Below, in pieces: positions 1,766 to 40,532 of a stretch of DNA of 64,000 nt; the first letter of the stretch is position 1; every line of letters starts with the position of its first letter. Below the pieces are notes generated by a model that was not told where the DNA came from, did no database searches, and saw nothing but the letters and a program-made list of their open reading frames with translations. A program made the translations under genes and the position numbers. Origin of the DNA: Candidatus Competibacteraceae bacterium (lineage in GTDB: Bacteria > Pseudomonadota > Gammaproteobacteria > Competibacterales > Competibacteraceae); the NCBI GenBank assembly GCA_036351435.1, contig JAZBPA010000065.1, positions 1,186-65,185 on the forward strand, in the 5' to 3' direction.

Positions 1766-2530
1766 ATGAACTATGCCCGCGCCGCTGCCGCTAGCCTGCG
1801 CACCTTGACGGAACATGCGCCGCGCGTGCACTGCATCACTAATTTAGCCGCATCCGCGTACACAGCGAACCTTCTGCTCGCTGTAGGCGCTATCCCGAGT
1901 TTATCGCTCTCTCCTACGGAACTGGCCAGCTTTGTGGGCAGGGCGGACGGTCTGTGCATCAACCTCGGCACATTGGACGAACAACGCCGACAAGCCATTG
2001 GGCTGGCCCTGGAAACCGCTGCCATTTACGGTAAACCCTGGGTGCTTGATCCGGTACTGGTGGATGTCTCCCCGGAACGGTGTCGTTACGCGCAAACCTT
2101 GCTGGCCCAAGGTCCCACAATCATTCGTGGCAATCGTGCTGAAATCGAAGCGCTGGCCGAACGGGAAGAGCAAGCCGCTGAACAATTGGCTATTAAATGC
2201 AACGCGGTTGTTGCGCAGACCGGATCGGTGGATTTGATTACCGACGGTTATCGCCGTATTGAGATCGCTAACGGCCATCCGCTAATGAGCCGGGTAACCG
2301 GCCTGGGATGCGCCGGTTCCGCTTTGATTGCGGCGTTTCTGGCCGTCGTCGAGGACGGGTACGCTGCCGCAACCCAGGCATTGCTCAGTTTGGGAGTGGC
2401 TGGCGAACAAGCGGCTCTGCAAGTAACCGGACCCGGCAGTTTTCAATGGGCTATTCTGGATGAACTGTACCGGCTTGACGAATCCCTGCTCGAACAACAA
2501 GGCAAAGTGCGCGAAATAGCGCTTGGCTGA
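1766..2530 (+). CDS. thiM: hydroxyethylthiazole kinase
   Basis: VHCITNxxxxxxTANLLLAVGAxP, INLGTL, PWVLDPV and IIRGNxxEIxALA blocks are collinear with E. coli ThiM. Confidence 0.9.
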   Translation: MNYARAAAASLRTLTEHAPRVHCITNLAASAYTANLLLAVGAIPSLSLSPTELASFVGRADGLCINLGTLDEQRRQAIGLALETAAIYGKPWVLDPVLVDVSPERCRYAQTLLAQGPTIIRGNRAEIEALAEREEQAAEQLAIKCNAVVAQTGSVDLITDGYRRIEIANGHPLMSRVTGLGCAGSALIAAFLAVVEDGYAAATQALLSLGVAGEQAALQVTGPGSFQWAILDELYRLDESLLEQQGKVREIALG

Positions 2531-2555
2531 TCTACCTACCTATCAGGCGAAATCA

Positions 2556-3638
2556 ATGACTGCTTATCCTATGAATCGGCGGGGCTTTATGGCTTTGACG
2601 GGAGCCTTGGTGGCGGCTCCGCTGACCACTGTAGCGGCTGAAAAGCCCGCCTTTGAATGGAAAATGGTCACTTCCTGGCCCAAAAACAGCCCTGGACCCG
2701 GTCTCACTGCTGAGCGACTGGCCCAGCGGATCAACATCATGAGCGGCGGACGGTTGCTGGTCAAAGTTTACGGTGCGGGTGAATTGGTGCCTGCATTGGA
2801 AGTGTTCGATGCCGTATCGCGCGGTACGGCGGAACTCGGCCATACCGCATCCTTCTTCTGGCGCGGCAAGATTCCGGCCAGTGTGTTTTTTACTACCGTA
2901 CCGTTTGGCTTGATTGCGGCTGAGCATGCCGCCTGGATTGATCACGGCGGTGGCCAAGCACTCTGGGAAGAATTGTACGGCGATTTCGGCCTGCTACCCT
3001 TCATGGCGGGTAATACCGGAATGGGAATGGGCGGTTGGTTCAAACGCGAGATCAACAGCCTAGCGGATTTAAAGGGACTCAAATATCGAATACCCGGTCT
3101 CGGCGGCGAGGTATTAAAACGCTTGGGGGCAACCACAGTTACCCTGCCCCCCGGTGAGATTTTCTCGGCGCTGCAAGCGGGCGTTGTGGATGGCGCCGAA
3201 TGGGTTGGTCCCTGGAGTGATATGGCGCTGGGTTTATATAAAGCTGCGCCTTACTACTACTGGCCTGGATTCCATGAACCCAACGGCACGGGGGAATGTT
3301 TAGTTCACCGCCAAAGTTGGGCGAAATTGCCTGCTGATTTACAGGCCATCGTCAGTAATGCTTGCGCCGTGGAACATGCCTATTCACTGGCGGAAGCCGA
3401 GTGGCAGAATGCGGAAGCCGTGGAACTGCTGGTACGTCAACACGGTGTTAAAATCCGCGCCTTTCCACAAGATGTCATCACTGCTGCTCTTAGTGCCGCC
3501 AGCGAGGTACTCGCTGAGTTCGGCCAGGGCGATGCCATTAGCCGCCGCATTTATCAATCCTATGAGGCGGCTCGGCAACGAGTTATAGGTTGGTCCCAAA
3601 TCTCCACGCTGGCTCTGTTGAAAGCACGTGCGGAGTAA
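2556..3638 (+). CDS. TRAP-type transporter periplasmic solute-binding protein (DctP family), Tat-type leader
   Basis: MNRRGFMALTGALVAAPL is a twin-arginine leader. The WKMVTSWPKNSPG..., GELVPALEVFDAVSxGTAE and FFTTVPFG blocks are typical of DctP/COG4663-type SBPs. The start is uncertain (TTG 2523, ATG 2556 or ATG 2571). Confidence 0.8.
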   Translation: MTAYPMNRRGFMALTGALVAAPLTTVAAEKPAFEWKMVTSWPKNSPGPGLTAERLAQRINIMSGGRLLVKVYGAGELVPALEVFDAVSRGTAELGHTASFFWRGKIPASVFFTTVPFGLIAAEHAAWIDHGGGQALWEELYGDFGLLPFMAGNTGMGMGGWFKREINSLADLKGLKYRIPGLGGEVLKRLGATTVTLPPGEIFSALQAGVVDGAEWVGPWSDMALGLYKAAPYYYWPGFHEPNGTGECLVHRQSWAKLPADLQAIVSNACAVEHAYSLAEAEWQNAEAVELLVRQHGVKIRAFPQDVITAALSAASEVLAEFGQGDAISRRIYQSYEAARQRVIGWSQISTLALLKARAE

Positions 3639-3876
3639 TTTCCGAGTTCATGGCAGGCGGTCAATTAACAGCTTGACCACCGATCACATTGGGAAACAAG
3701 GTATTCAGTGAAGAAATTGCCGAAGCCTGTTCCAGTCCCGTTATCTCATCCAAATCTGACTGTTTGGCAACCATTACCAGAATGACTATAATATTGGTCT
3801 TTAATTTGCCTAATGATTAATATGCCGGTCACTGAGCCTAATACCGGTAAGCTAGCCTTCAGACTGAATAGCAGAC

Positions 3877-4209
3877 ATGGCAAAACCGCGCACCTTTTCC
3901 AAATACGCCCAGGAAGCTGCCGTTCTGATGGGCAAGCAGATCAAGCTGGGGCGCAAGCAGCGTCAATGGACAGAGAAGAATCTCGCTGAACGCGCAGGAA
4001 TCTCCAGAGCCACACTGCAACAAATCGAAAATGGTGAGATGAGTTGCGCCATCGGCTTAGTCTTCGAAGTCGCCACTCTGGTCGGTGTCAACTTGTTTGA
4101 TCAGGACAAACTTCCTCTAGCAACACATATTGAGCAAACACGCGACAAAATTGCGTTGCTACCGCAACGTATCAAAACCAAGACAAAGGTGATTTACGAT
4201 GACTTCTAG
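3877..4209 (+). CDS. hipB: XRE-family HTH antitoxin, HipB-like
   Basis: 110 aa. The HTH is WTEKNLAERAGISRATLQQIENGE. It overlaps the downstream HipA-like ORF by 11 nt. Confidence 0.8.
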   Translation: MAKPRTFSKYAQEAAVLMGKQIKLGRKQRQWTEKNLAERAGISRATLQQIENGEMSCAIGLVFEVATLVGVNLFDQDKLPLATHIEQTRDKIALLPQRIKTKTKVIYDDF

Positions 4210-27206: not shown

Positions 27207-28475
27207 ATGAATCCGAACACACCTCGTTTTGTCAGCCGATTAACGCGAGAGACTCTGGCGTTGATTTTAGCGGGTGGACGGGGCAGTCGACTCAAACACC
27301 TGACCCAGTGGCGAGCAAAGCCTGCCACTCCGTTTGGGGGTAAATTTCGCATTATCGACTTTCCGTTATCTAATTGCATGAACTCGGATATTCGACGGAT
27401 GGCGGTATTGACGCAGTACAAGGCACATTCCTTGATCTTGCATACGCAAAAAGGCTGGGGGTTTTTGCGTGGCGAGTTCGGAGAATTCGTCGAACTGTGG
27501 CCTGCCCAGCAACGCCTAGCTTCTTCGTGGTATCAAGGGACGGCTGATGCGGTTTATCAAAACCTGGATATTATGCGCAGCCACGCGCCAGAATATGTAT
27601 TGATTCTGGCGGGTGATCATATCTATAAGATGGATTATGGTCCTATGATCGCCACCCACGTTGAGCAACAAGCTGATGTCACTGTGGGTTGTATTGAAGT
27701 GCCTCGGGCGCGGGCAGCCGGCGAATTTGGCATTATTACTGTGGACGATGAAGACCGGGTACTGCGCTTCACGGAAAAACCTGCCGATCCGGAACCGCTG
27801 CCGGGTAAAGAGGACACTACGCTGGCCTCAATGGGAATCTATGTCTTCAACGCAAAATTCCTGTATGAGCAACTCATTAAGGATGCCGACACATCAACCT
27901 CGAATCACGACTTTGGCAAAGACATTATCCCAGCGGCAATTGACCGTTACCGGGTATACGCTCACGCCTTCCGGGATGTGCAAACCGGCAAACAAAACTA
28001 TTGGCGTGATGTGGGTACGGTAGATGCGTTCTGGGAAGCGAATCTTGAACTAGCCGGAGTCAGCCCAGAACTGAATTTGTATGATGAGCAATGGCCGATT
28101 TGGACTTACCAGGCCCAATTACCGCCCGCCAAATTCGTGTTCGATGATGATAACCGTCGCGGCATGGCGGTCGATACTATGGTCTCCGGCGGTTGCCTGA
28201 TCAGCGGAGGTTACGTAAGCCGTTCAATATTATTCTCCAATGTAAAAGTCCATTCTTATGCCCATTTAGAGGATGCCGTCGTATTACCTGATGTGGATAT
28301 TGGTCGGCATTGCCGGCTCAAAAAAGTCATTATAGATGAAGGTTGTATCATCCCACCAGGCACGGTAATCGGTGAGAATCTCGCCGAAGATGCTAAGCGG
28401 TACTATGTATCAGAAGGTGGCGTGGTCTTGGTAACTCCTGAAATGCTGGGTCAGGAGTTGCATCAGGTTCGTTGA
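27207..28475 (+). CDS. glgC: glucose-1-phosphate adenylyltransferase
   Basis: [41 protein letters not shown] is the canonical GlgC N-terminus. Confidence 0.95.
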
Positions 28476-28505
28476 GTTGTTCACCCGCCGCCGGAAATAC
28501 TATCC

Positions 28506-29726
28506 ATGAAAATCCTTTTTTTGACCAATGAATACCCGCCGTACATCTACGGCGGCGCTGGAGTACATGTAGAGCACTTGGTGCCGGAGTTGGCGCAGCT
28601 GGATAATGGGGCCCATACGGTTCAGGTGCTCTGCTTCGGCGACCAACAGATACGGCAGGATAATTTCAATGTGCAGGGCATATCGGGTATCGAATCGGAA
28701 TTGCCTTACCAGGATCGCCGTCATCAAAAATATTTTGACACGCTAGTGCGGAATATTGTGATGGCCGGTTCCGTAGCGGAAGCGGATATTGTTCATTGTC
28801 ACACGTGGTACTCGCACTTAGCCGGTTGCCTGCTCAAATCATTAGTAGGCGCTAAGCTGGTACTCACCACGCATTCTCTGGAACCTCACCGGCCCTGGAA
28901 AGTGGAACAATTAGGTAGTGCTTATCAGGGCAGCACCTGGGTGGAAAAGACGGCTTATCAGAATGCCGATGGTGTGGTTGCCGTTTCTAACGCCATGAGT
29001 ACTGATGTTCAGACGTTATATGGCGTACCGCGTGAAAAAGTTCAGGTCATCCACAACGGTATTGACTTGAACCACTTTAAACCTACGCCTAACCCTGCGG
29101 TGCTGCAAACCTACGGAGTCGATCCTGACCGGTCTTACATTCTTTTTGTCGGGCGAATTACTCGGCAAAAAGGCATCATTCATTTGGTTAATGCGATTAA
29201 ATACGTGCATCCGGGTATTCAAATTGTGCTATGCGCCGGTACCCCTGATACGGTAGAAATCGGTCAGGAGATGGATGCTAAAGTAAGGGAGGCGCGCGCT
29301 GCCACGCCAAATGAGGTGATTTGGATTTCGCAGAATCTGAGCAAAGCGGACTTGGTTACTTTATATACCCACGCGACGTTATTTGTCTGTCCTTCTGTCT
29401 ATGAGCCGTTCGGCATCATTAATTTAGAGGCGATGGCTTGCGAAACTCCTGTAGTGGCCGCTGCCGTGGGCGGTATTCCAGAAGTTGTAGTGCCGGTAGA
29501 AACCGGCTTGCTGGTTCGTCTTGAGTCCGCTGGTCAGGGAGATTTTGAACCTTTGAATCCCGAGCTGTTCTCTCAGGATTTAGCGACTAGCATTAATTTG
29601 CTCCTGGATTCACCGGACACGTTGCAGGCTATGGGACGCAAGGCTCGAGAACGGGTGGAACGACACTTCAGTTGGACATACATCGCACAACAAACATTGG
29701 AGTTTTATAAAACTCTGCTAAGTTGA
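28506..29726 (+). CDS. GT4-family ADP-glucose-dependent alpha-glucan / maltose-1-phosphate synthase (actinobacterial GlgA/GlgM type)
   Basis: MKILFLTNEYPPYIYGGAGVHVEHL, HSLEPHRPWKVEQLG, FVGRITRQKG, FVCPSVYEPFGIINLEAMAC and GGIPEVV are collinear with the mycobacterial Rv1212c-type protein as I recall it. Confidence 0.8.
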   Translation: MKILFLTNEYPPYIYGGAGVHVEHLVPELAQLDNGAHTVQVLCFGDQQIRQDNFNVQGISGIESELPYQDRRHQKYFDTLVRNIVMAGSVAEADIVHCHTWYSHLAGCLLKSLVGAKLVLTTHSLEPHRPWKVEQLGSAYQGSTWVEKTAYQNADGVVAVSNAMSTDVQTLYGVPREKVQVIHNGIDLNHFKPTPNPAVLQTYGVDPDRSYILFVGRITRQKGIIHLVNAIKYVHPGIQIVLCAGTPDTVEIGQEMDAKVREARAATPNEVIWISQNLSKADLVTLYTHATLFVCPSVYEPFGIINLEAMACETPVVAAAVGGIPEVVVPVETGLLVRLESAGQGDFEPLNPELFSQDLATSINLLLDSPDTLQAMGRKARERVERHFSWTYIAQQTLEFYKTLLS

Positions 29727-29770: not shown

Positions 29771-29800
29771 GATTTCCTAACGTATTACTAGGTGTTGAGA

Positions 29801-30313
29801 ATGATGCGCTTGCTGTTAATTGCAGCGTTATTTGTAGTGTTGAATCCGGTTTACGCGGAAAGAACCCAATCATTTGGATTGCACGCCGGAGTCTCTCTGA
29901 ACGAGAACAAGGAGTTTTATAGCGCGGTATTTTTTACCAGCCATCCGCTTTTTGAGCCTATGCAGACAGTAATTGGGAAAGTATATCCTCGGATTAATAC
30001 TGGTCTGGGGTTATTGTGGAACGATGAAAAAACAGGAGTTGTGGGTTCGTTGGGCCCAAGCGTTATATTTTTTGGGATGCAGGAAAGACTGAGGTTGGGG
30101 TTAGGGATCGATGTGGCCTTGCTGAGTCGTACTCAATTTGAAGAAACCGATTTCGGTAGCGCTTTGGAATTTATATCTTATGTCAATATTGCTTGGGGGA
30201 TTGTTGAAGGATTAACTGCAGGCTATCGCTTTCAACACATGTCTAATGCAGGTCTTAGCTCTATTAACCCCGGTCTAAACTTGCATGTATTATCACTTGA
30301 GTACTCTTACTGA
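29801..30313 (+). CDS. pagL: PagL-like lipid A 3-O-deacylase / acyloxyacyl hydrolase outer-membrane protein
   Basis: About 170 aa with a signal peptide (MMRLLLIAALFVVLNPVYA). The C-terminal FGSALEF...YRFQHMSNAGL...LSLEYSY parallels P. aeruginosa PagL LGSSLNF...IHYSNAGL...SLFYKIPI (catalytic His-x-Ser). Confidence 0.75.
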   Translation: MMRLLLIAALFVVLNPVYAERTQSFGLHAGVSLNENKEFYSAVFFTSHPLFEPMQTVIGKVYPRINTGLGLLWNDEKTGVVGSLGPSVIFFGMQERLRLGLGIDVALLSRTQFEETDFGSALEFISYVNIAWGIVEGLTAGYRFQHMSNAGLSSINPGLNLHVLSLEYSY

Positions 30314-30329
30314 TGGAGTTGGCAGCGTT

Positions 30330-31304
30330 GTGAAATTACAGCAACTTCGCTACTTAACAGCTATTGCCAAGAATAATCTAAATATCTCAGCAGCTGCTGA
30401 GGCGCTCTTTACTTCACAACCCGGGGTCAGTAAGCAGATTCGATTACTGGAAGATGAATTAGGCGTCGAGTTGTTCAACCGCAATGGCAAACATTTGACC
30501 CATATTACGCCGGTGGGACGACGCATTATCGAAAAAGCCGAACGGATTTTAGGAGAAGTACGCAACATTCAGACCCTGGCGGCGGAGTTCCGTGATGAGC
30601 AGCGGGGCAACTTGTCTATCGCCACCACTCATACTCAAGCGCGTTACGCCCTGCCGAGCGTTATCCAAACCTTTAGAGCTCGTTATCCGGCAGTCACTTT
30701 ACAATTGCACCAAGGTTCGCCTGCCCAGATTGCTGAGATGGCCTCGTCCGGCTTAGTGGATTTTGCGATCGCTACCGAAGCTTTAGAGTTGTTCGAAGAT
30801 CTGATAATGCTGCCTTGTTATCTTTGGCATCGGTGTATTTTAGTGCCTCATGGTCATCCACTTACCCAGTTAACCGAGTTGAGTTTGCAGGATGTCGCAG
30901 CTTATCCATTGGTGACTTATGTGTTTGGGTTCACCGGCCGATCTCAATTAGATGAAGCGTTTAAAGCCGCTCGATTAAAACCCACTGTTGCGTTTACGGC
31001 AACTGATGCTGATGTGCTAAAAACTTATGTCCGGCTTGGGCTGGGGGTTGGTATTATCGCTAGGATGGCACATGACCCTAAATTTGATCAGGATTTGGTT
31101 CCATTAGACGCTAGTCATTTGTTTGCTCCTAATACCACGATGATTGGATTTCGTCGCGGAACTTTTTTACGCAGCTATATGTATGATTTTATTTCGCTTT
31201 TTGCGCCTCACTTGACCTTGCAAGTGGTACAATCTGCAGAACGAAGTGACTCAGATGATGGCATTGATAATTTGTTCGAGTCGTTAGAGTTACCGATGCG
31301 GTAA
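30330..31304 (+). CDS. cysB: LysR-family transcriptional regulator CysB
   Basis: It is near-collinear with E. coli CysB: KLQQLRY, SQPGVSKQIRLLEDELG, ATTHTQARYALP, HQGSPxQIA, FAIATEAL, LVTYxFGFTGRSxLD, FTATDADVxKTYVRLGLGVG and GFRRGTFLRSYMYDFI. I infer a GTG start at 30330; the start is uncertain. Confidence 0.85.
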   Translation: MKLQQLRYLTAIAKNNLNISAAAEALFTSQPGVSKQIRLLEDELGVELFNRNGKHLTHITPVGRRIIEKAERILGEVRNIQTLAAEFRDEQRGNLSIATTHTQARYALPSVIQTFRARYPAVTLQLHQGSPAQIAEMASSGLVDFAIATEALELFEDLIMLPCYLWHRCILVPHGHPLTQLTELSLQDVAAYPLVTYVFGFTGRSQLDEAFKAARLKPTVAFTATDADVLKTYVRLGLGVGIIARMAHDPKFDQDLVPLDASHLFAPNTTMIGFRRGTFLRSYMYDFISLFAPHLTLQVVQSAERSDSDDGIDNLFESLELPMR

Positions 31305-31374
31305 TTAATCATCAGATGTTATTGTGTAGTGGTATTTATGTAAAGATGATGATATAAGAGCGATATTGAATCAT

Positions 31375-32268
31375 ATGAATAGCAACCCGGCCACCTTACG
31401 CATCGACCTTCTGGAAAATTTTCAACACCTGCTCAGCAGCCTGAATCAATTTTGCACTGCTTTACGCAACGACAATCGCTTACCCGCCTGGGTCTCGCGC
31501 ACTGAGCAGGAAATAAATGCCAGTCTTGCACCGCGCACCAAAGCCATTTCACTGTATCAGGCGTTATGGTATGAGGGTGATCAAGATGGCCGAGAAACGC
31601 TAACTTGCCCAGGTATCATCGGTGCCAGCCCGGCTACTCTGGAAGCTGCTCGCACCTGTAACACCAAGAAAGATAAATTTAAAGCGATTGTGCTCCAACT
31701 AAAAATCCTCAGCAAAGCTGAAGCCAGCCTAATAATGGCAGATCTGCACAGCCGTAACGAGGAAGTTGCAACGGCAATGAAACGTATGGGCGCAGCCCGA
31801 TTGAACCTGAAACAAGCGTATCGGCATATTCCGTTACTAGACCGTCGCCCATTAAAAATCGGCTTCACCTGGTCGAAACAAGGCCGTACTATTCAGCGTA
31901 CCAATGTCAGTGAAACCCGCCGACTGCTGGAACGCCGCAGGGAAACGCCTCAAATCAGGCAGGAACTGAACCAACTGAGCACACTGCCGGACAATGAGCA
32001 ACTCGCCCGAGTCCGCGGGGTTTGCCCCCATCTACGCGCCAATATAGTATTTGCTGAGGGCGGTAAGGCGTCGAATCGCAGACGGTTAATCCAAGCGCCC
32101 TTGCCCATTCTTGTCCCATTGCAAGGCAATGAAGCATTGCCGGATTTCGTACCGATTGAGACAGAACCTCAGGATAATCCAAGGCTCCGCCGTTCCGATG
32201 TTCGCATTGAAGACGATGTATTTCTTCCGTCTATCCGTGTTTACCGCTACCGAGAACCCTATCGATGA
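31375..32268 (+). CDS. Tus-like protein (candidate DNA replication terminus site-binding protein homologue)
   Basis: The by-eye alignment to E. coli Tus (recalled from memory) is collinear: CPGII/LPGVL, KDKFKAIV/KLKTTFEHIV, LKQAYRHI/LNAYRTL, KIGFTWSKQ/LRFGWANKH, LPDNEQLARVR..HLRANI/LPQNAKLKIKR..QPIARV, APLPILVPL/CPTPLIALI, FLPSIRVYRY/IIPRLHLYV. The length is similar (297 vs 309 aa). I take the ATG at 31375 (the ORF track starts at TTG 31366). Confidence 0.5.
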   Translation: MNSNPATLRIDLLENFQHLLSSLNQFCTALRNDNRLPAWVSRTEQEINASLAPRTKAISLYQALWYEGDQDGRETLTCPGIIGASPATLEAARTCNTKKDKFKAIVLQLKILSKAEASLIMADLHSRNEEVATAMKRMGAARLNLKQAYRHIPLLDRRPLKIGFTWSKQGRTIQRTNVSETRRLLERRRETPQIRQELNQLSTLPDNEQLARVRGVCPHLRANIVFAEGGKASNRRRLIQAPLPILVPLQGNEALPDFVPIETEPQDNPRLRRSDVRIEDDVFLPSIRVYRYREPYR

Positions 32269-35200
32269 ACCAGGGAAGCATGTTGTCGCCATCTAGCGAG
32301 GCGTTTTACCAACGCCATTGGCTGCTCATCGTCATCACCCTCTTGCTATTGTTCTGCCAACCCGCGTTTGCCAGTATGCCGTTGAACCGCGTTCCCATTC
32401 CCCTGCAACCTTGGGTGGATTGGGTGCTGTACGGGATCACTGAAACCCGCTGCCCTTTGGTATACAAGCAAACTGAGCAGTACCAATGCACTTGGCCATC
32501 CTCGCTAACGCTTAATGTTGGTCCACAAGGTGGGGAATTCGTGCAACGCTGGTGGATCGATACGGAAAGTTGGTTAACCTTGCCGGGCGATCTCAATCAT
32601 TGGCCGCAGCAGGTTCGTTTTGATGGTTATCCGACCATCGTCTTAGAACGAGATGGGCGCCCGGCGCTTAAGGCAGGAGTAGGCGCACATACTGTCAGTG
32701 GGCGCTTTATATGGCGTGAGTTACCGGATTCTCTAGCTGTTCCTTCCGATACGGCACTGTTATCTCTGACCTTAGCAGGTCGAGCGATTGCCGAACCCCG
32801 GTTAGAAAGAGACGGTCGAGTTCGCTTGCAACCGCAAGCCGTTGCCGCTGATTTGCAAAATCATCAGGAAATACGGGTTTTTCGCAAGATCATCGACGCT
32901 ATTCCTTTACTGCTGCACACTCGGGTAGAACTTCGCATCTCCGGGCAAGCACGAGAGGAATTATTAGGGAGAGCTTTGCCGTCAGGCTTCATCCCTCTTG
33001 AATTGAAGAGCCCATTGTCGGCTCGCTTAGAAGCCGACGGTCGCTTGCGGGTGCAAGTCAAACCCGGCACTTGGACGGTGCAATACAATGCCCGCCATAC
33101 CGGCCCGGTCAGCGAACTTTCCGCGCCAATCCCAGACGGACCTTGGGCCAAGCAGGAAATTTGGGTGTTTGAAGCACGACCTGCATTGCGGGTGGTTACG
33201 GTACAAGGTGCGCCTAGTTTGGACCCGGCGCAAACCAACTTGCCCGAGGACTGGCGACAGCTACCCGCTTATCTAATGCAACCTGGGCAGGAACTCACCT
33301 TAGTGACTCGAAAGCGCGGCGATGCCGATCCGGTTCCAGACCGGTTGCATTTGGAACGCACCTTGTGGCTCGATTTCGCCGGTAGGGGCTACACTGTACA
33401 GGATCGCTTGAACGGCACCATCTCCCGCAGCGCCCGACTGGAAGCAGCACCGCCTTTGTTGCTAGGCCAAGTGATGATCAATGGACAACCGCAGTTCATC
33501 ACCCGCCTACCTGACAGCGCCCTTGACGGTATTGAAGTTCGTCAAGGGCAGATTCAACTCACCGCGGACAGTCGCTTGGAACCGGCAAGAATTAATAGTT
33601 TACCGGCTGTCGGCTGGCAAATTGATCCTGCCAGTCTGCGCAATACTATCAATCTACCACCGGGATGGCGGCTATTGACCGCCCTGGGCACTGACCAAGC
33701 CTCAAAGACTTGGCTACAACGTTGGACCCTGCTGGACTTATTCGTTGTGCTGATTGCCGCGCTCAGTGTTGGCCGGTTATGGAGCTGGAACTATGGCGCT
33801 CTGGCGCTGGTCGGTCTGCTGCTCAGTTATCATGAGCCGAATGCCCCTCGGTTACTGTGGTTGAACGTATTAGCCGCCATCGCCCTGCTGCGGGTATTGC
33901 CGACGGGCCGGTTGTATGTACTCACTCAATGGTATTGGCGCGCATCCTGGCTAGCCCTGCTAGTCGTTACGCTGGCGTTTACCGTGCAACAAGTGCGCGG
34001 TGCGCTTTATTTGCAACTGTCTCAGTCTGCAGTAACCGACTTTAGCTTGTCAGACTTCGCCCCTATACCCTCTTCAACGCCGGCACCTGCCTTGGCGAAG
34101 CGTGCACCGGCGAGTTCACCGCCGGCCAGGGTTGCGGAAGAAGCCGTGAAACAGGACTATGACTCTACCATTCAGTTACAAACCGGTCCTGGTCTTCCTG
34201 ATTGGCGTTGGAATCAGGCCGTATTAAGTTGGAATGGACCGGTTGCTGCCGATCAACGGCTGCGACTCTGGTTCTCTCCACCCTGGGCGACCCGGTTATG
34301 GATGTTCATCAGCGCCGCATTGCTGCTTGCTTTACTCGTTAGAACAGCTCGGCCAGTCCGACCACCACCCAAATCAGAATCTGAGTTACTGCCAATCGCA
34401 CCGGCAGCCTCCCTGGTCCTCGCGCTACCTTTGTTGCTAACGACGTCTATCCTTCATGCCGAAACCTTACCTATGCCGTCTCTGGAACTGCTGGAAGAAT
34501 TGCGCGAGCGGCTGACCGAACCACCGGATTGCCAACCCCGCTGCACTCATCTGGCCACTCTGAACGTGTCTGCTACAGCGCAGGAACTACGACTCAAGCT
34601 GTTGTTGAACAGCCAAATCGATAGCGCTATCCCATTACCGTTACTGAGTGATCGAGCAATCCCGCTGAGTGCCAGTTTGGATGGACAACCATTTGCGCCA
34701 CTGTTTCGCGCATCGGATCATGGCCTGTGGGCAAGGGTACCCGCCGGCCAACACGAATTGGAGCTACGTGCGTTGCTACCGGCCGAGCTGCTCAGCTTTC
34801 AATTGCCTCTACCAATGAAACCCGGCTGGGTCAATGCTGAGATCACAGGTTGGGATATGGAAGGACTCTATGTCAGGGGCGAGATCGGCGATTCTATTCA
34901 GTTGACTCGCCAGCGTGGAGAGGGCTCAACAGTTGCGCTGCAACCCGGGGTAATACCACCATTTGTTATGCTGGAACGGGAATTAATTTTGGGCGTCGAT
35001 TGGCAAGTGCACTCTCGGGTGCGACGCATGAGCCAAGCAAACTCAGCCATCATACTGGCCGTCCCGCTGTTATCCGGAGAACGGGTCACAAGTCCGGGAG
35101 TTCGGGTACAAAACAATCAAGTATTGCTTAATTTGTCGCCATCCGAGTCTGCAACTGAGTGGACAGCAACCCTAGATAAGGCCTCGGAACTGACCTTAAA

Positions 35201-36317
35201 CGCTGCATTGACCCAGAGCTTCGTCGAGATCTGGCGACTTCGCGCCAGCCCGCTTTGGCACATCGAAGCCGCCGGCTTACCCATCATTCATCGACATGAC
35301 AGCAGTGGCCAATGGTTACCGGAGTGGCGTCCCTGGCCCGGAGAATCGTTGCAACTTACCATCAGCCGCCCGGCGGGGATCGCGGGTAAGACCGTAACCA
35401 TTGACTCCGCTCACTTGACTGTCGTACCCGGTCAACGGGCTACCGCCACGACGCTAGCACTATCCGTCCGTAGCAGTCGGGGCAGCGAACAAACGTTAAC
35501 CCTACCTGCAGGTGCTGAATTATCCGGCTTTGCAGTAAACGGCGTTTCGCAACCCTTACGATTGCAAAACCAGCGTTTAACTCTCGCGCTTAATCCCGGC
35601 GAGCAGCGGGTAACTGTGGATTGGCGTATTGAACAAGGCATATCAACACGTTACTTTACCCCCACCGTCGATTTAGGTTCGGATAGCGTGAATACTCGCA
35701 TCGTGCTTAAGCCACCCAACGACCGTTGGATACTCTTCACAGCAGGGCCACAGCTAGGACCAGCAGTATTGTTTTGGGGTATGTTAGTCGTCATTGCTTG
35801 TGGTGCACTGGCCTTAGGACGCTATGGGCAAACTCCATTATCGACCGGCCAGTGGTTCTTACTAGGCATCGGGCTGAGTCAGGCGGGCATTGCAGCAACG
35901 GTGTTGGTCATTGGCTGGCTGCTGTTGCTAGGTCGGCGTAAAGTGGCCGGCGAAACCTGGAATAAATGGTCATTCAATCTGCTGCAAATTGGCTTAGGGT
36001 TGCTCACCCTAGCCGCCTTAGTTGCTCTGTTATATGCCATCAATCAAGGTTTGCTGGGACCGCCAACCATGCAAATCGCTGGTAATGGCTCCAGTGCTTA
36101 CCAATTGCAATGGTATCAAGACCGATCAGCGGCGCAATTGCCTCAGGCTTGGGTGCTTTCCGTACCATTGATTGTGTATCGCGGTCTGATGTTGGCATGG
36201 GCGTTGTGGTTGGCTTTTGCCCTGTTACGCTGGCTAAACTGGGGTTGGCAATGCTTCAGCAGTGGCGGAATTTGGCGGCAGCTGCGTGCACAGCAAACCG
36301 ATCCGGTAGAAGGCTGA
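32265..36317 (+). CDS. 1350-aa polytopic membrane protein of unknown function, internally duplicated (leader helix, ~430-aa exported domain and 4 TM, twice)
   Basis: It is an uninterrupted ORF whose ATG overlaps the upstream stop (ATGA). Hydrophobic segments lie at about aa 19-36, 487-575 (x4), 677-692, 712-732 and 1155-1323 (x4). The two soluble regions share ordered motifs (see findings). Confidence 0.8.
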   Translation: MNQGSMLSPSSEAFYQRHWLLIVITLLLLFCQPAFASMPLNRVPIPLQPWVDWVLYGITETRCPLVYKQTEQYQCTWPSSLTLNVGPQGGEFVQRWWIDTESWLTLPGDLNHWPQQVRFDGYPTIVLERDGRPALKAGVGAHTVSGRFIWRELPDSLAVPSDTALLSLTLAGRAIAEPRLERDGRVRLQPQAVAADLQNHQEIRVFRKIIDAIPLLLHTRVELRISGQAREELLGRALPSGFIPLELKSPLSARLEADGRLRVQVKPGTWTVQYNARHTGPVSELSAPIPDGPWAKQEIWVFEARPALRVVTVQGAPSLDPAQTNLPEDWRQLPAYLMQPGQELTLVTRKRGDADPVPDRLHLERTLWLDFAGRGYTVQDRLNGTISRSARLEAAPPLLLGQVMINGQPQFITRLPDSALDGIEVRQGQIQLTADSRLEPARINSLPAVGWQIDPASLRNTINLPPGWRLLTALGTDQASKTWLQRWTLLDLFVVLIAALSVGRLWSWNYGALALVGLLLSYHEPNAPRLLWLNVLAAIALLRVLPTGRLYVLTQWYWRASWLALLVVTLAFTVQQVRGALYLQLSQSAVTDFSLSDFAPIPSSTPAPALAKRAPASSPPARVAEEAVKQDYDSTIQLQTGPGLPDWRWNQAVLSWNGPVAADQRLRLWFSPPWATRLWMFISAALLLALLVRTARPVRPPPKSESELLPIAPAASLVLALPLLLTTSILHAETLPMPSLELLEELRERLTEPPDCQPRCTHLATLNVSATAQELRLKLLLNSQIDSAIPLPLLSDRAIPLSASLDGQPFAPLFRASDHGLWARVPAGQHELELRALLPAELLSFQLPLPMKPGWVNAEITGWDMEGLYVRGEIGDSIQLTRQRGEGSTVALQPGVIPPFVMLERELILGVDWQVHSRVRRMSQANSAIILAVPLLSGERVTSPGVRVQNNQVLLNLSPSESATEWTATLDKASELTLNAALTQSFVEIWRLRASPLWHIEAAGLPIIHRHDSSGQWLPEWRPWPGESLQLTISRPAGIAGKTVTIDSAHLTVVPGQRATATTLALSVRSSRGSEQTLTLPAGAELSGFAVNGVSQPLRLQNQRLTLALNPGEQRVTVDWRIEQGISTRYFTPTVDLGSDSVNTRIVLKPPNDRWILFTAGPQLGPAVLFWGMLVVIACGALALGRYGQTPLSTGQWFLLGIGLSQAGIAATVLVIGWLLLLGRRKVAGETWNKWSFNLLQIGLGLLTLAALVALLYAINQGLLGPPTMQIAGNGSSAYQLQWYQDRSAAQLPQAWVLSVPLIVYRGLMLAWALWLAFALLRWLNWGWQCFSSGGIWRQLRAQQTDPVEG

Positions 36318-36351: not shown

Positions 36352-37581
36352 ATGTCCACTTCAGAACGGGTCACTTTCCCCGGATTTCAGGGCGATTTAC
36401 TCGCTGCACGATTAGATCACCCCGCTGGGGAATGTCGTGGTTATGCTTTATTTGCGCATTGTTTCAGTTGTTCTAAAGAAGTGCTGACCGCAGTACGCAT
36501 CAGTCGGGCTTTGGCTGAACGCGGCATTGCCGTCTTGCGCTTCGACTTTACTGGATTGGGCAGTAGCGGCGGGGAATTTGCCAATACAAATTTCTCCTCT
36601 AACGTGCAGGATTTAATACAAGCAGCCCAGTTTTTACGGGAGCATTATCAAGCGCCTGCGATTATGATTGGCCATAGCTTAGGCGGCGCGGCTGTATTAG
36701 CAGCAGCCGGATCGATTCCCGAAGTTCGTGCGGTTACCACCCTTAACGCACCCAGCGATGTCGCTCACGTGAGTCATTTTTTCGCCGCCGCCATCCCTGC
36801 GATTCAAACCCAAGGTGAAATGGAGGTCACCCTGGTTGGGCGCAAGTTCCGCATCAAGAAACAATTCTTAGACGACATCACAGAGCAAAATTTGCTCCAG
36901 CAAGTTGCTGAGCTACGTAAACCGTTATTGATCTTTCATTCCCCTGTCGACGAAGTGGTGGGCGTTGATCATGCGGCGCGGCTTTATGGTGCCGCCAAAC
37001 ACCCGAAAAGCTTTATTTCTTTGGACGATGCTGATCACATGGTATCGCGGGTTAGCGATGCGGATTTCGTTGCCAATGTACTGACAGCTTGGGCTAGCCG
37101 TTACCTCACAGTCGCAGCGCAACCCGAAGTCATTGAGACAGCACCCAATTCTGTGCAGGTGAGAGAAACCTTGCAAAGCCCTCTGGCGCAGGAAATCAAG
37201 GTCGGCTCTCACACCTTTCCGGCCGACGAGCCGGTCTCTTTAGGCGGCAAAGACTCTGGGCCTAATCCCTATGATTATTTGCTAGCCGCATTGGGCGCTT
37301 GCACGAATATGACCCTACGCATGTATGCCCAGCATAAGGGATTACCCGTGCAGCGGATCAGTGCCGAACTGAAGCACGATAAAATACATGCCAAGGATTG
37401 TGCGTATTGCGCAACCAAGACCGGCAAAATTGATCGGATTGAGCGCACGATCACTATCGAAGGCGATTTAAACGAAGAGCAACGAGCCCGGCTATTGGAG
37501 ATAGCTGACCGTTGCCCGGTACATCGCACCCTACACTCGGAAGTGCTGATTGAAACCCGTTCGAAACCTACAGCAACGTAA
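36352..37581 (+). CDS. bifunctional alpha/beta-hydrolase / OsmC-family protein
   Basis: The N-terminal half has the nucleophile elbow GHSLGG. The C-terminal ~140 aa (GPNPYDYLLAALGACTNMTLRMYA...CPVHRTL) is an OsmC/Ohr-type fold signature. GGAGAAATAAAT precedes the ATG, 34 nt after the giant ORF. Confidence 0.8.
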   Translation: MSTSERVTFPGFQGDLLAARLDHPAGECRGYALFAHCFSCSKEVLTAVRISRALAERGIAVLRFDFTGLGSSGGEFANTNFSSNVQDLIQAAQFLREHYQAPAIMIGHSLGGAAVLAAAGSIPEVRAVTTLNAPSDVAHVSHFFAAAIPAIQTQGEMEVTLVGRKFRIKKQFLDDITEQNLLQQVAELRKPLLIFHSPVDEVVGVDHAARLYGAAKHPKSFISLDDADHMVSRVSDADFVANVLTAWASRYLTVAAQPEVIETAPNSVQVRETLQSPLAQEIKVGSHTFPADEPVSLGGKDSGPNPYDYLLAALGACTNMTLRMYAQHKGLPVQRISAELKHDKIHAKDCAYCATKTGKIDRIERTITIEGDLNEEQRARLLEIADRCPVHRTLHSEVLIETRSKPTAT

Positions 37582-39410: not shown

Positions 39411-40415
39411 CTACCGCCGGTCTCCGCTGATTAAATCGCCCAACCCTCCTAGCACGGAACCTTCGCCCTGCCTTCGGTTACCTGATTGTGGCGAACAGGC
39501 CAGCATACGGCCTGCTAGGCGGGAGAACGGCAAGGATTGCAACCATACATGGCCCGGCCCACGCAGATTCGCGAAAAACAGCCCCTCACCACCAAACAGA
39601 CCCGTTTTAATTCCACCCACCTGCTGGATGTCGAACGCTACGCTCTCCTGAAAAGCGACAACACAACCGGTATCGACGTGTAATTCTTCACCAGAAGCTA
39701 ACTGTTTCTCGTGAATGGTGCCGCCAGCATGAACGAACACCATACCGTCACCTTCTAGTTTCTGCATGATAAATCCTTCACCGCCAAACAACCCGGTCAG
39801 AATTTTACGTTGAAAGTGAATGCCGATACTGACGCCACGTGCGGCCGCCAGAAAACTATCCTTCTGGCAGATCAACCGCCCGCCCAGCTTTTCTAAAGAC
39901 AATGCCAGGATATTCCCCGGAAAAGGCGCAGCGAACGCAACATGTGCTTTGCCGTGATTACCAGCATGAGTAAACACAGTGATGAACAGACTTTCCCCGG
40001 TCAGCAGCCGCTTACCCGCGCCGAGCAATTTACCCATGAAACCGGTATTCGCAGCTTCTTGAGAACCGTCCCCAAAGATACTTTGCATCTGTATACAAGT
40101 ATCCTTGTACATCATTGCACCGGCTTCAGACACTGCACTTTCGCCGGGATCCAGTTCTACTTCCACGAACTGCATCTCGTGACCGTGAATCACATAATCA
40201 ATTTCATCGTTACGCAGTGTGGATGAGGGCGGGCTGGGGACGGCGGGTGAATTAGCCTGGGTCAAGTCGGCCACCTCGTTTATCGGTAGCCAACCGGACA
40301 AACCATCGTGCCAAGCATGACCCTGGGGATTAGCTGAAGCTTGGGAGCGGGCCTGCTCAAGTGTCATCGGACCGGTCTGTTGACCGTTATAGCTGAGGTA
40401 CCATTGCTGCGCCAT
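39411..40415 (-). CDS. GYF_2 (DUF4339) domain fused to AIM24/TIGR00266-family protein
   Basis: The N-terminal WYLSYNGQQTGPMTLEQ...HAWHDGLSGWLPI is a GYF_2-like block. The C-terminal ~240 aa has the GGEGLF/GGEGFIMQKLEGDG repeats typical of AIM24/DUF124. I prefer the ATG at 40415 over the TTG at 40421. Confidence 0.75.
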   Translation of the reverse strand: MAQQWYLSYNGQQTGPMTLEQARSQASANPQGHAWHDGLSGWLPINEVADLTQANSPAVPSPPSSTLRNDEIDYVIHGHEMQFVEVELDPGESAVSEAGAMMYKDTCIQMQSIFGDGSQEAANTGFMGKLLGAGKRLLTGESLFITVFTHAGNHGKAHVAFAAPFPGNILALSLEKLGGRLICQKDSFLAAARGVSIGIHFQRKILTGLFGGEGFIMQKLEGDGMVFVHAGGTIHEKQLASGEELHVDTGCVVAFQESVAFDIQQVGGIKTGLFGGEGLFFANLRGPGHVWLQSLPFSRLAGRMLACSPQSGNRRQGEGSVLGGLGDLISGDRR

Positions 40416-40532
40416 CAACAACCCCTTTCAACGAAATCACACCAATAAAATGGACTTTGGTTTTATTTGAATTTTTGCGAATTTGCACCAGGCTTGCAAA
40501 CCTGCCTCTAAACATAGAGCCCAACACTGGGT

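Follow-up and report, generated by a model that had tools for sequence, protein, structure and literature searches.

A two-module inner-membrane protein of Candidatus Competibacteraceae with an ancient internal duplication and a candidate internal signal-peptidase site

The window, that is the whole stretch of DNA analysed here, comprises 64,000 nucleotides from a Candidatus Competibacteraceae bacterium (GenBank assembly GCA_036351435.1, contig JAZBPA010000065.1, positions 1,186 to 65,185, forward strand). It carries a complete open reading frame (ORF) for a membrane protein of 1350 residues, which is the subject of this report and whose elements are collected in Table 1. The product belongs to a large unannotated family of proteins of about 1340-1430 residues; the deposited protein P0001, from a Candidatus Competibacteraceae metagenome-assembled genome, is 100 % identical to it and is named hypothetical protein, which is the source name of family members throughout. 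Searches of Pfam, NCBIfam and PADLOC, and of PDB sequences with the single sequence and with a profile, gave no family match for the 1350-residue protein, and none of the PADLOC anti-phage defence models was matched by it. Pfam assigned no family to the query at E≤10 or to 34 family members at E≤1; the sole profile match (DUF3098, E 0.008-0.2) was judged meaningless. A regular-expression scan of the protein for HEXXH, GXMEN, Walker A, GXSXG and CXXC was negative, in line with an earlier reading of the DNA and its translation (the sequence-only reading), which had recognised no enzymatic motif.

Models were calculated with AlphaFold2 for residues 1-740 and 631-1350 separately, each with a 60-sequence alignment (mean predicted local distance difference test score, pLDDT, 82.9 and 83.1, respectively). 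The order of elements is the same in both: a leader helix, a short helix or loop with a cysteine pair, a stretch of some 400 residues that is β throughout and forms roughly three sandwich domains, then four helices, a β-hairpin and one more transmembrane (TM) helix. In module 1 the sandwich domains, about three in number, fall roughly at residues 76-187, 200-314 and 335-474; in module 2 the strands of the hairpin were modelled at residues 1280-1301. In a hydropathy scan a leader appeared at residues 17-41, further helices at 484-581, 673-698 and 706-735, and, between residues 1160 and 1321, four strong TM segments. The leader helix, the large soluble regions and the Pro/Ala/Ser-rich linker of the sequence-only reading were recovered by the scan and the models. 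The linker is present in module 1 only, between TM4 and the hairpin; its residues 600-629 have pLDDT <50 and are variable or gapped across the family. Two details of the earlier description were revised. Each module had been thought to close with four TM helices, and in the models there are five, the hairpin standing between the fourth and the last; module 2 had been thought to start at about residue 677. Hairpin 650-671 and helix 673-694 reached pLDDT 94-97 when modelled with module 1 and about 54-77, with loss of the strands, without it; both were therefore assigned to module 1, and the module boundary was placed at about residues 700-710. A helix does lie at 712-732, as had been described for the opening of module 2; more than a TM helix, it is a conserved signal-peptide-like element.

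Table 1. Positions within the window of the gene for the two-module protein and of the elements of its product
Feature	Position	Strand	Basis
Complete ORF, ATG start, 1350 codons and stop	32265..36317	+	ORF reading
N-terminal Sec-type signal peptide, residues 17-36, predicted cut AFA↓S after A36	32313..32372	+	Sequence reading, hydropathy
Cys pair 1 (C63, C75), presumed periplasmic disulfide	32451..32489	+	116/117 conserved
Module 1 periplasmic all-β region, residues 76-475	32490..33689	+	AlphaFold2 (pLDDT mostly >90), Foldseek, conservation
Module 1 TM1-TM4, residues 489-506, 508-521, 529-544 and 549-581; invariant D491, R543, R578	33720..34019	+	AlphaFold2, conservation
Disordered Pro/Ala/Ser-rich periplasmic linker of variable length, residues 586-637	34020..34175	+	pLDDT <50, low conservation
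Module 1 β-hairpin (QTGPGLPxWxW...WNGPV, residues 638-672) and TM5 (673-694)	34176..34346	+	pLDDT, invariant residues
Arg/Lys-rich cytoplasmic loop (695-711) and internal signal-peptide-like leader (712-732), predicted cut LHA↓E after A732	34347..34460	+	Positive-inside counts, family Pro and AxA motif
Start of mature module 2: conserved helix (PxxELLxELRxRL) and Cys pair 2 (C756, C760)	34476..34544	+	Conservation, AlphaFold2
Module 2 periplasmic all-β region, residues 761-1160, homologous to residues 76-475	34545..35744	+	hhalign, AlphaFold2, Foldseek
Module 2 TM1'-TM4', residues 1169-1187, 1194-1204, 1209-1228 and 1234-1264; invariant Q1206, R1225, Q1241	35757..36056	+	AlphaFold2, conservation
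Module 2 β-hairpin (GLLGxPxMQIxGNGSS...WYQDR, residues 1265-1301), TM5' (1302-1332) and short basic cytoplasmic tail	36057..36314	+	AlphaFold2, conservation

The duplication is detectable only at the profile level. BLASTP of residues 1-640 against 641-1350 gave a best E value of 0.27, which is not significant. The alignment of 117 full-length homologues was then cut into halves and the half profiles were compared by hhalign, which returned a probability of 97.9 % (E 5.9e-13) over 460 aligned columns, residues 73-585 against 758-1269; in global mode, with boundaries at 705/706, the probability was 99.0 % (E 5e-17). Controls with reversed columns of either half gave 0.2 and 0.7 %. The two modules have about 20 % profile identity, and the four ordered motif pairs that had been picked out by eye as common to both soluble regions all lie in aligned columns (YQC/PRC; SSLTLNV/HLATLNV; VRFDGYPTIV..GAHTV/ASLDGQPFAP..GQHEL; LPPGWRLLTALG/KPPNDRWILFTAGPQLG), C75 being aligned with C760. 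A hidden Markov model (HMM) built from module 2 only and run against 1.84 billion representatives matched two to three stretches in many family members, so HMMER detects module 1 as well. The two modules, searched separately with Foldseek against the PDB, reach the same top structural neighbours, which provides a second, independent argument for homology of the halves. Comparison by hhalign of the TM bundles alone, or of hairpin and TM5 alone, was not significant, and the proposed equivalence of hairpin and TM5 between the modules is a structural inference from the order of elements in the models, not from sequence. That the two modules arose by an ancient duplication is nevertheless secure. 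Self-similarity, the test proposed with the sequence-only reading, thus failed for single sequences and succeeded for profiles, and with clean controls, matching models and no characterised family its description as a fused tandem duplication of an uncharacterised envelope protein family stands.

A weak secondary hhalign match (probability 15-20 %, not significant) was also seen between residues 101-151, in the first sandwich of module 1, and residues 1075-1122, in the third of module 2; the pattern '(D/N)G-x-P ... PG-x-H/Q' occurs in both, a hint that the sandwiches inside each module may themselves be older repeats.

The orientation in the membrane was read from the distribution of positive charge. 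Over 116 homologues, Lys and Arg together total 17.7 in the predicted cytoplasmic loops versus 3.0 in the predicted periplasmic short segments, which places both β regions, both hairpins and the linker in the periplasm; all that faces the cytoplasm is a tail of some 20 residues and a few loops, which are short and basic. Both cysteine pairs, invariant in 116-117 of the 117 homologues, would fit periplasmic disulfides. The two soluble regions differ in conservation. Near-invariant positions make up 20 % of that of module 1, 25 of them polar or charged and nine of these acidic (D211, E231, E256, D258, E298, D320, D370, D380 and E424), versus 12 % in module 2, with 13 polar or charged. Such an asymmetry is typical of duplicated pairs in which one copy retains the functional site.

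The family is widespread. With the module-2 profile, 2,763 clusters (50 % identity) were matched at E≤1e-3 and 1,695 at E≤1e-30, and a pattern scan of species-representative genomes gave at least 550 relatives. These come from Competibacteraceae, Methylococcales, Thiotrichales, Ectothiorhodospiraceae, Oceanisphaera, Mariprofundaceae, Myxococcales, Desulfobacterales, Syntrophobacterales and Binatia; the carriers include methanotrophs, sulfur oxidisers, glycogen accumulators, Myxococcota and Desulfobacterota. At 85 loci inspected the gene is nearly always one ORF, of 1266-1591 residues. It is broken at three of them, each time inside the low-complexity linker. As a case for natural two-gene versions the three loci are weak evidence. 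L007 and L044 carry frameshifts, which may be assembly errors; in L060 (ORFs at 58-1785 and 1822-4092) an in-frame stop in the linker is followed 36 nucleotides later by an ATG, a possible natural split that would lie in the linker and not where the modules meet.

The best 150 representatives by the module-2 HMM are dominated by the two-module family itself. One convincing single-module protein was found among them, answering the search for single-module homologues that the sequence-only reading had called for: P0225, 649 residues long, of the module-2 type and with its own signal peptide. Its gene occurs on two contigs (4090-6039 on L088; 2334-4283 on L089) and adjoins a HigB/HigA-like gene pair; no module-1 gene lies nearby at these loci. 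A single module can therefore exist alone, possibly as a homodimer. A second candidate, P0234, was discarded as a contig-end fragment, and the 1433-residue neighbour of P0225 proved unrelated.

The leader between the modules shows the features of a signal peptide across the family. Helix 712-732 sits in the least conserved stretch of the protein, and family members have at this place a basic n-region, a hydrophobic core, a Pro and then A-x-A directly before the conserved "FPSPELL" start of module 2. The motif [AV]xA occurs in the last 12 residues before module 2 in 101 of 116 members (87 %), against a per-window background of 11.9 %; at the other four periplasm-facing helix exits it was found in 33, 1, 0 and 0 %. 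Among the 101 members with the motif, Pro or Gly stands at -4 to -7 in 93, the h-region is strong in 99 and the +1 residue is D, E or Q in 81. The predicted cut lies two residues before the conserved Pro column in 77 members and three in a further 12 (89/116). Family-wide, the n-h-c organisation of a signal peptide is kept at a fixed position, with a helix breaker at -4 to -7 and small residues at both -3 and -1. Identity between members is 20 % in the h-region versus 58 % in the first 20 mature residues, and such a pairing of a drifting core with a constant c-region is the evolutionary pattern of genuine cleaved signal peptides. The N-terminal leaders of the family, by comparison, carry an AxA motif in 65 % and are poorly conserved, with low pLDDT. 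The N-terminal signal peptide of the single-module protein P0225 has a VWA↓EF site which aligns with the internal site of the fused proteins. On the strength of the fixed Pro and A-x-A motif, the drifting core and the signal peptide of P0225, we propose that signal peptidase I cuts the fusion at the internal leader into two homologous subunits, a well-supported hypothesis.

The FbcH cytochrome b-c1 precursor of Bradyrhizobium is a precedent for a polyprotein processed by signal peptidase. Viral envelope polyproteins (PMC7601889, PMC7926653) are a further precedent for such processing. The two-module protein resembles these systems in having an internal A-x-A-type signal peptide between two membrane-protein units of one ORF; it differs from them in that its two products would be homologues of each other, and cleavage is deduced here from motif conservation alone.

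By Foldseek, the top match of both modules is Ost1/ribophorin I from the yeast and human oligosaccharyltransferase (OST) (E 2.5e-6 for module 1 and 5.6e-7 for module 2; probability 1.00, 370-530 aligned columns; 6ezn_A, 6c26_1, 7oci_A, 6s7t_E, 8b6l_O). These proteins are likewise non-catalytic, and their tandem β-sandwiches also lie on the non-cytoplasmic side, with a membrane anchor behind them. Identity to them is 7-10 %, and Pfam Ribophorin_I (PF04597) was matched neither by the query (E≤10) nor by any of 34 members (E≤1). Ost1, which acts within the multi-subunit OST, has a single TM helix, whereas the bacterial protein is duplicated and has five helices and a hairpin per module. The next matches of both modules are the non-catalytic N-domain of leukotriene A4 hydrolase and of M1 aminopeptidases (3chq, 6ifg, 2gtq), with a single-domain fold of 150-180 residues matched at a root-mean-square deviation of 3.8-6 Å and probability 1.00. 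Unlike the M1 enzymes, the two-module protein lacks the thermolysin-like domain and the HEXXH-(18X)-E and GXMEN motifs, and gives no Pfam Peptidase_M1 match. Literature searches gave nothing usable on a fold link between Ost1 and leukotriene A4 hydrolase or on bacterial ribophorin homologues.

For the genomic context, all flanking ORFs within 5 kb of the 85 loci were clustered into families. No family is common to more than 13 of the 85 loci, and the recurrent neighbours (mpl, apaG/apaH, rpe, trpE/G) reflect Methylococcales synteny. No conserved adaptor, outer-membrane-factor or ATPase gene and no OST-type partner was found near the 85 loci, where there is no conserved neighbour of any kind. 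Six contexts inspected individually have no common neighbour, except for a Ter-like ORF in the closest relative (L086). The two-module protein thus appears to be self-sufficient and its gene to stand alone.

The Ter-like ORF lies directly upstream in the window (31366-32268, + strand, 300 residues, TTG start), its stop overlapping the start of the two-module gene by 4 nucleotides. It matches Pfam Ter (Tus, DNA replication terminus-binding protein) with 25.8 bits versus a cut-off of 22 bits (E 6.7e-6); neither NCBIfam nor PDB sequences gave a match. L086 likewise has a Ter-like gene upstream, and the other homologues inspected lack one. A conserved operon with this ORF, or with the hydrolase-OsmC gene downstream, was rejected for this reason, only L086 keeping the Ter-like gene; a link to replication termination or chromosome segregation was rejected on the same ground, and the chromosome-segregation phenotype hinted at in the sequence-only reading finds no support in a neighbour that is not conserved beyond the closest relative. 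A Tus-like protein in Competibacteraceae could merit separate attention.

Other genes near the locus were noted in passing. Directly downstream (36352-37581, +) an α/β-hydrolase domain (residues ~33-250) is fused to a C-terminal OsmC-like domain (residues 299-402); this gene is absent from the corresponding place in L086. An ORF with an N-terminal GYF_2 domain and an AIM24/TIGR00266 domain (39411-40421, -) is syntenic in L086. Upstream, at 27207-29726 (+), glgC (glucose-1-phosphate adenylyltransferase) precedes a gene for glycogen synthase, which belongs to the 'glgA_Coryne' GT4 subtype (TIGR02149) and not to the classical GT5 GlgA; the pair is in keeping with an organism of the Competibacter type that accumulates glycogen. 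An ORF for a PagL-like lipid A 3-O-deacylase (29792-30313, +) is immediately followed by CysB (30285-31304, +), whose annotated start it overlaps by 29 nucleotides; the CysB profile match begins at residue 16, so the true cysB start is probably further downstream.

Taken together, we favour, at somewhat better than even chances, a stand-alone two-module inner-membrane protein which is cut by signal peptidase I into a pseudo-heterodimer and forms a non-enzymatic periplasmic platform for binding or scaffolding. Each module comprises a predicted Sec signal peptide, a presumed N-terminal disulfide, about three sandwich domains in the periplasm, a four-helix bundle, a hairpin and a fifth TM helix. 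The leader of the second module would act as a functional signal peptide, and its cleavage by signal peptidase I would yield two homologous subunits in a fixed 1:1 ratio, which would assemble as a pseudo-heterodimer. The complex would then bind or scaffold an extended envelope ligand, a polypeptide or glycan chain, and this is the weakest step of the proposal; the better-conserved module 1 would carry the binding site, with module 2 as a degenerate structural partner. The binding or scaffold function was suggested by the non-catalytic fold neighbours together with the lack of a catalytic motif, of a cytoplasmic domain and of a partner gene. This role is argued from fold class and absent catalytic signatures, and is put forward with low confidence.

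Several points weigh against this proposal. The internal site of the query itself, L-H-A↓E, has Leu at -3, lies five residues before the conserved Pro and is less canonical than that of most members, and an AxA motif by itself is no proof of cleavage. The Foldseek neighbours are at 7-15 % identity with whole-chain TM-scores of 0.14-0.29, the low scores being due to a different orientation of the sandwich domains; β-sandwiches are promiscuous folds, and the modelled likeness to Ost1 is at the level of fold class only. The invariant acidic residues of module 1 might just as well belong to a metal site or to an active site that went unrecognised, and the invariant intramembrane residues D491, R543 and R578 might line a path for protons or ions, a point in favour of a transporter.

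The strongest alternative concerns the cut. Left uncleaved, the internal leader would be a signal-anchor helix returning the chain to the periplasm in one polypeptide of 12 TM helices, and we give this possibility serious weight, if somewhat less than an even chance. It accords with the sub-optimal site of the query, with retention of the fused form in nearly all members and with the near absence of genuine two-gene versions, two of the three split loci being frameshifts. There would, however, be no reason for an uncleaved anchor to hold its c-region constant, yet in 87 % of members Pro at -4 to -7, small residues at both -3 and -1 and an acidic residue at +1 stand at an unvarying distance from the mature domain, the rest of the helix having diverged to 20 % identity. 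The other four periplasm-facing helix exits, which serve as controls, show the motif in 0-33 %.

The main rival to the scaffold function, rated less likely than it and on the whole unlikely, is a secondary exporter or flippase driven by the proton-motive force on an RND/SecDF-like blueprint, in which the charged membrane residues would form a proton relay and the β-sandwich arms would receive or hand over a hydrophobic or polymeric envelope substrate. RND and SecDF proteins are likewise tandem duplications, and in every six-helix repeat their first helix leads into a large periplasmic domain; the protein studied here has 12 helices if both leaders are counted, two periplasmic domains of about 400-450 residues, a pseudo-twofold duplication and invariant intramembrane D491, R543, R578, Q1206, R1225 and Q1241, and, with no cytoplasmic domain, any energy coupling would have to run through the membrane. 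The likeness in helix number holds only if both leaders count as helices; the first helix of each repeat resembles a cleavable signal peptide, and if both are cleaved the 6+6 symmetry is gone. Homology to RND or SecDF was detected neither in sequence nor in structure: there was no match to ACR_tran, MMPL, SecD_SecF, Patched or another transporter family, even at E≤1 over 34 members, and the top 50 Foldseek matches of either module include neither an RND nor a SecDF protein. Moreover, the periplasmic domains are all-β and not α/β porter-like, two of the helices are very short (11-14 residues), and none of the genes that conservation near the 85 loci would point to (adaptor, outer-membrane factor, ATPase) was found there. 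A type VII ABC permease (FtsX/MacB/LolCE) is likewise not indicated: a conserved ATPase neighbour is absent, and no Pfam FtsX match was obtained.

An unrecognised membrane-anchored periplasmic enzyme acting, for example, on peptidoglycan, polysaccharide or lipoprotein, with a catalytic module 1 and a pseudo-enzyme module 2, would accord with the roughly twofold excess in module 1 of invariant residues that are polar or charged, nine of them acidic, as is typical of active/inactive duplicated pairs, but is quite improbable given the lack of a catalytic motif, of an enzyme-family match and of a conserved pathway context at the 85 loci, and structural neighbours (Ost1, M1 N-domain) that are non-catalytic domains.

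The cleaved, scaffold-forming pseudo-heterodimer can be extended one step further, to a bacterial polyprotein cut by signal peptidase I which represents an unrecognised class of inner-membrane envelope machine with Ost1-fold arms and possibly a related role in handling polypeptide or glycan chains; we offer this tentatively and consider it doubtful.

A very large and widespread bacterial family, with proteins of about 1,350 residues each, has thus gone without description in Pfam, NCBIfam or the literature. Polytopic membrane proteins built by internal duplication are well known; new in this analysis is the conserved signal-peptidase site inside the fusion, and the duplication-built pseudo-heterodimer, this site and the Ost1-like periplasmic fold together make a concrete, testable model. 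If the cleavage is real, the family would be a rare bacterial case in which polyprotein processing by signal peptidase fixes subunit stoichiometry. True Ost1-fold arms would provide a bacterial counterpart for the fold of a eukaryotic OST subunit, and if the resemblance to Ost1 reflects common ancestry, it would bear on the origin of the accessory subunits of the eukaryotic oligosaccharyltransferase.

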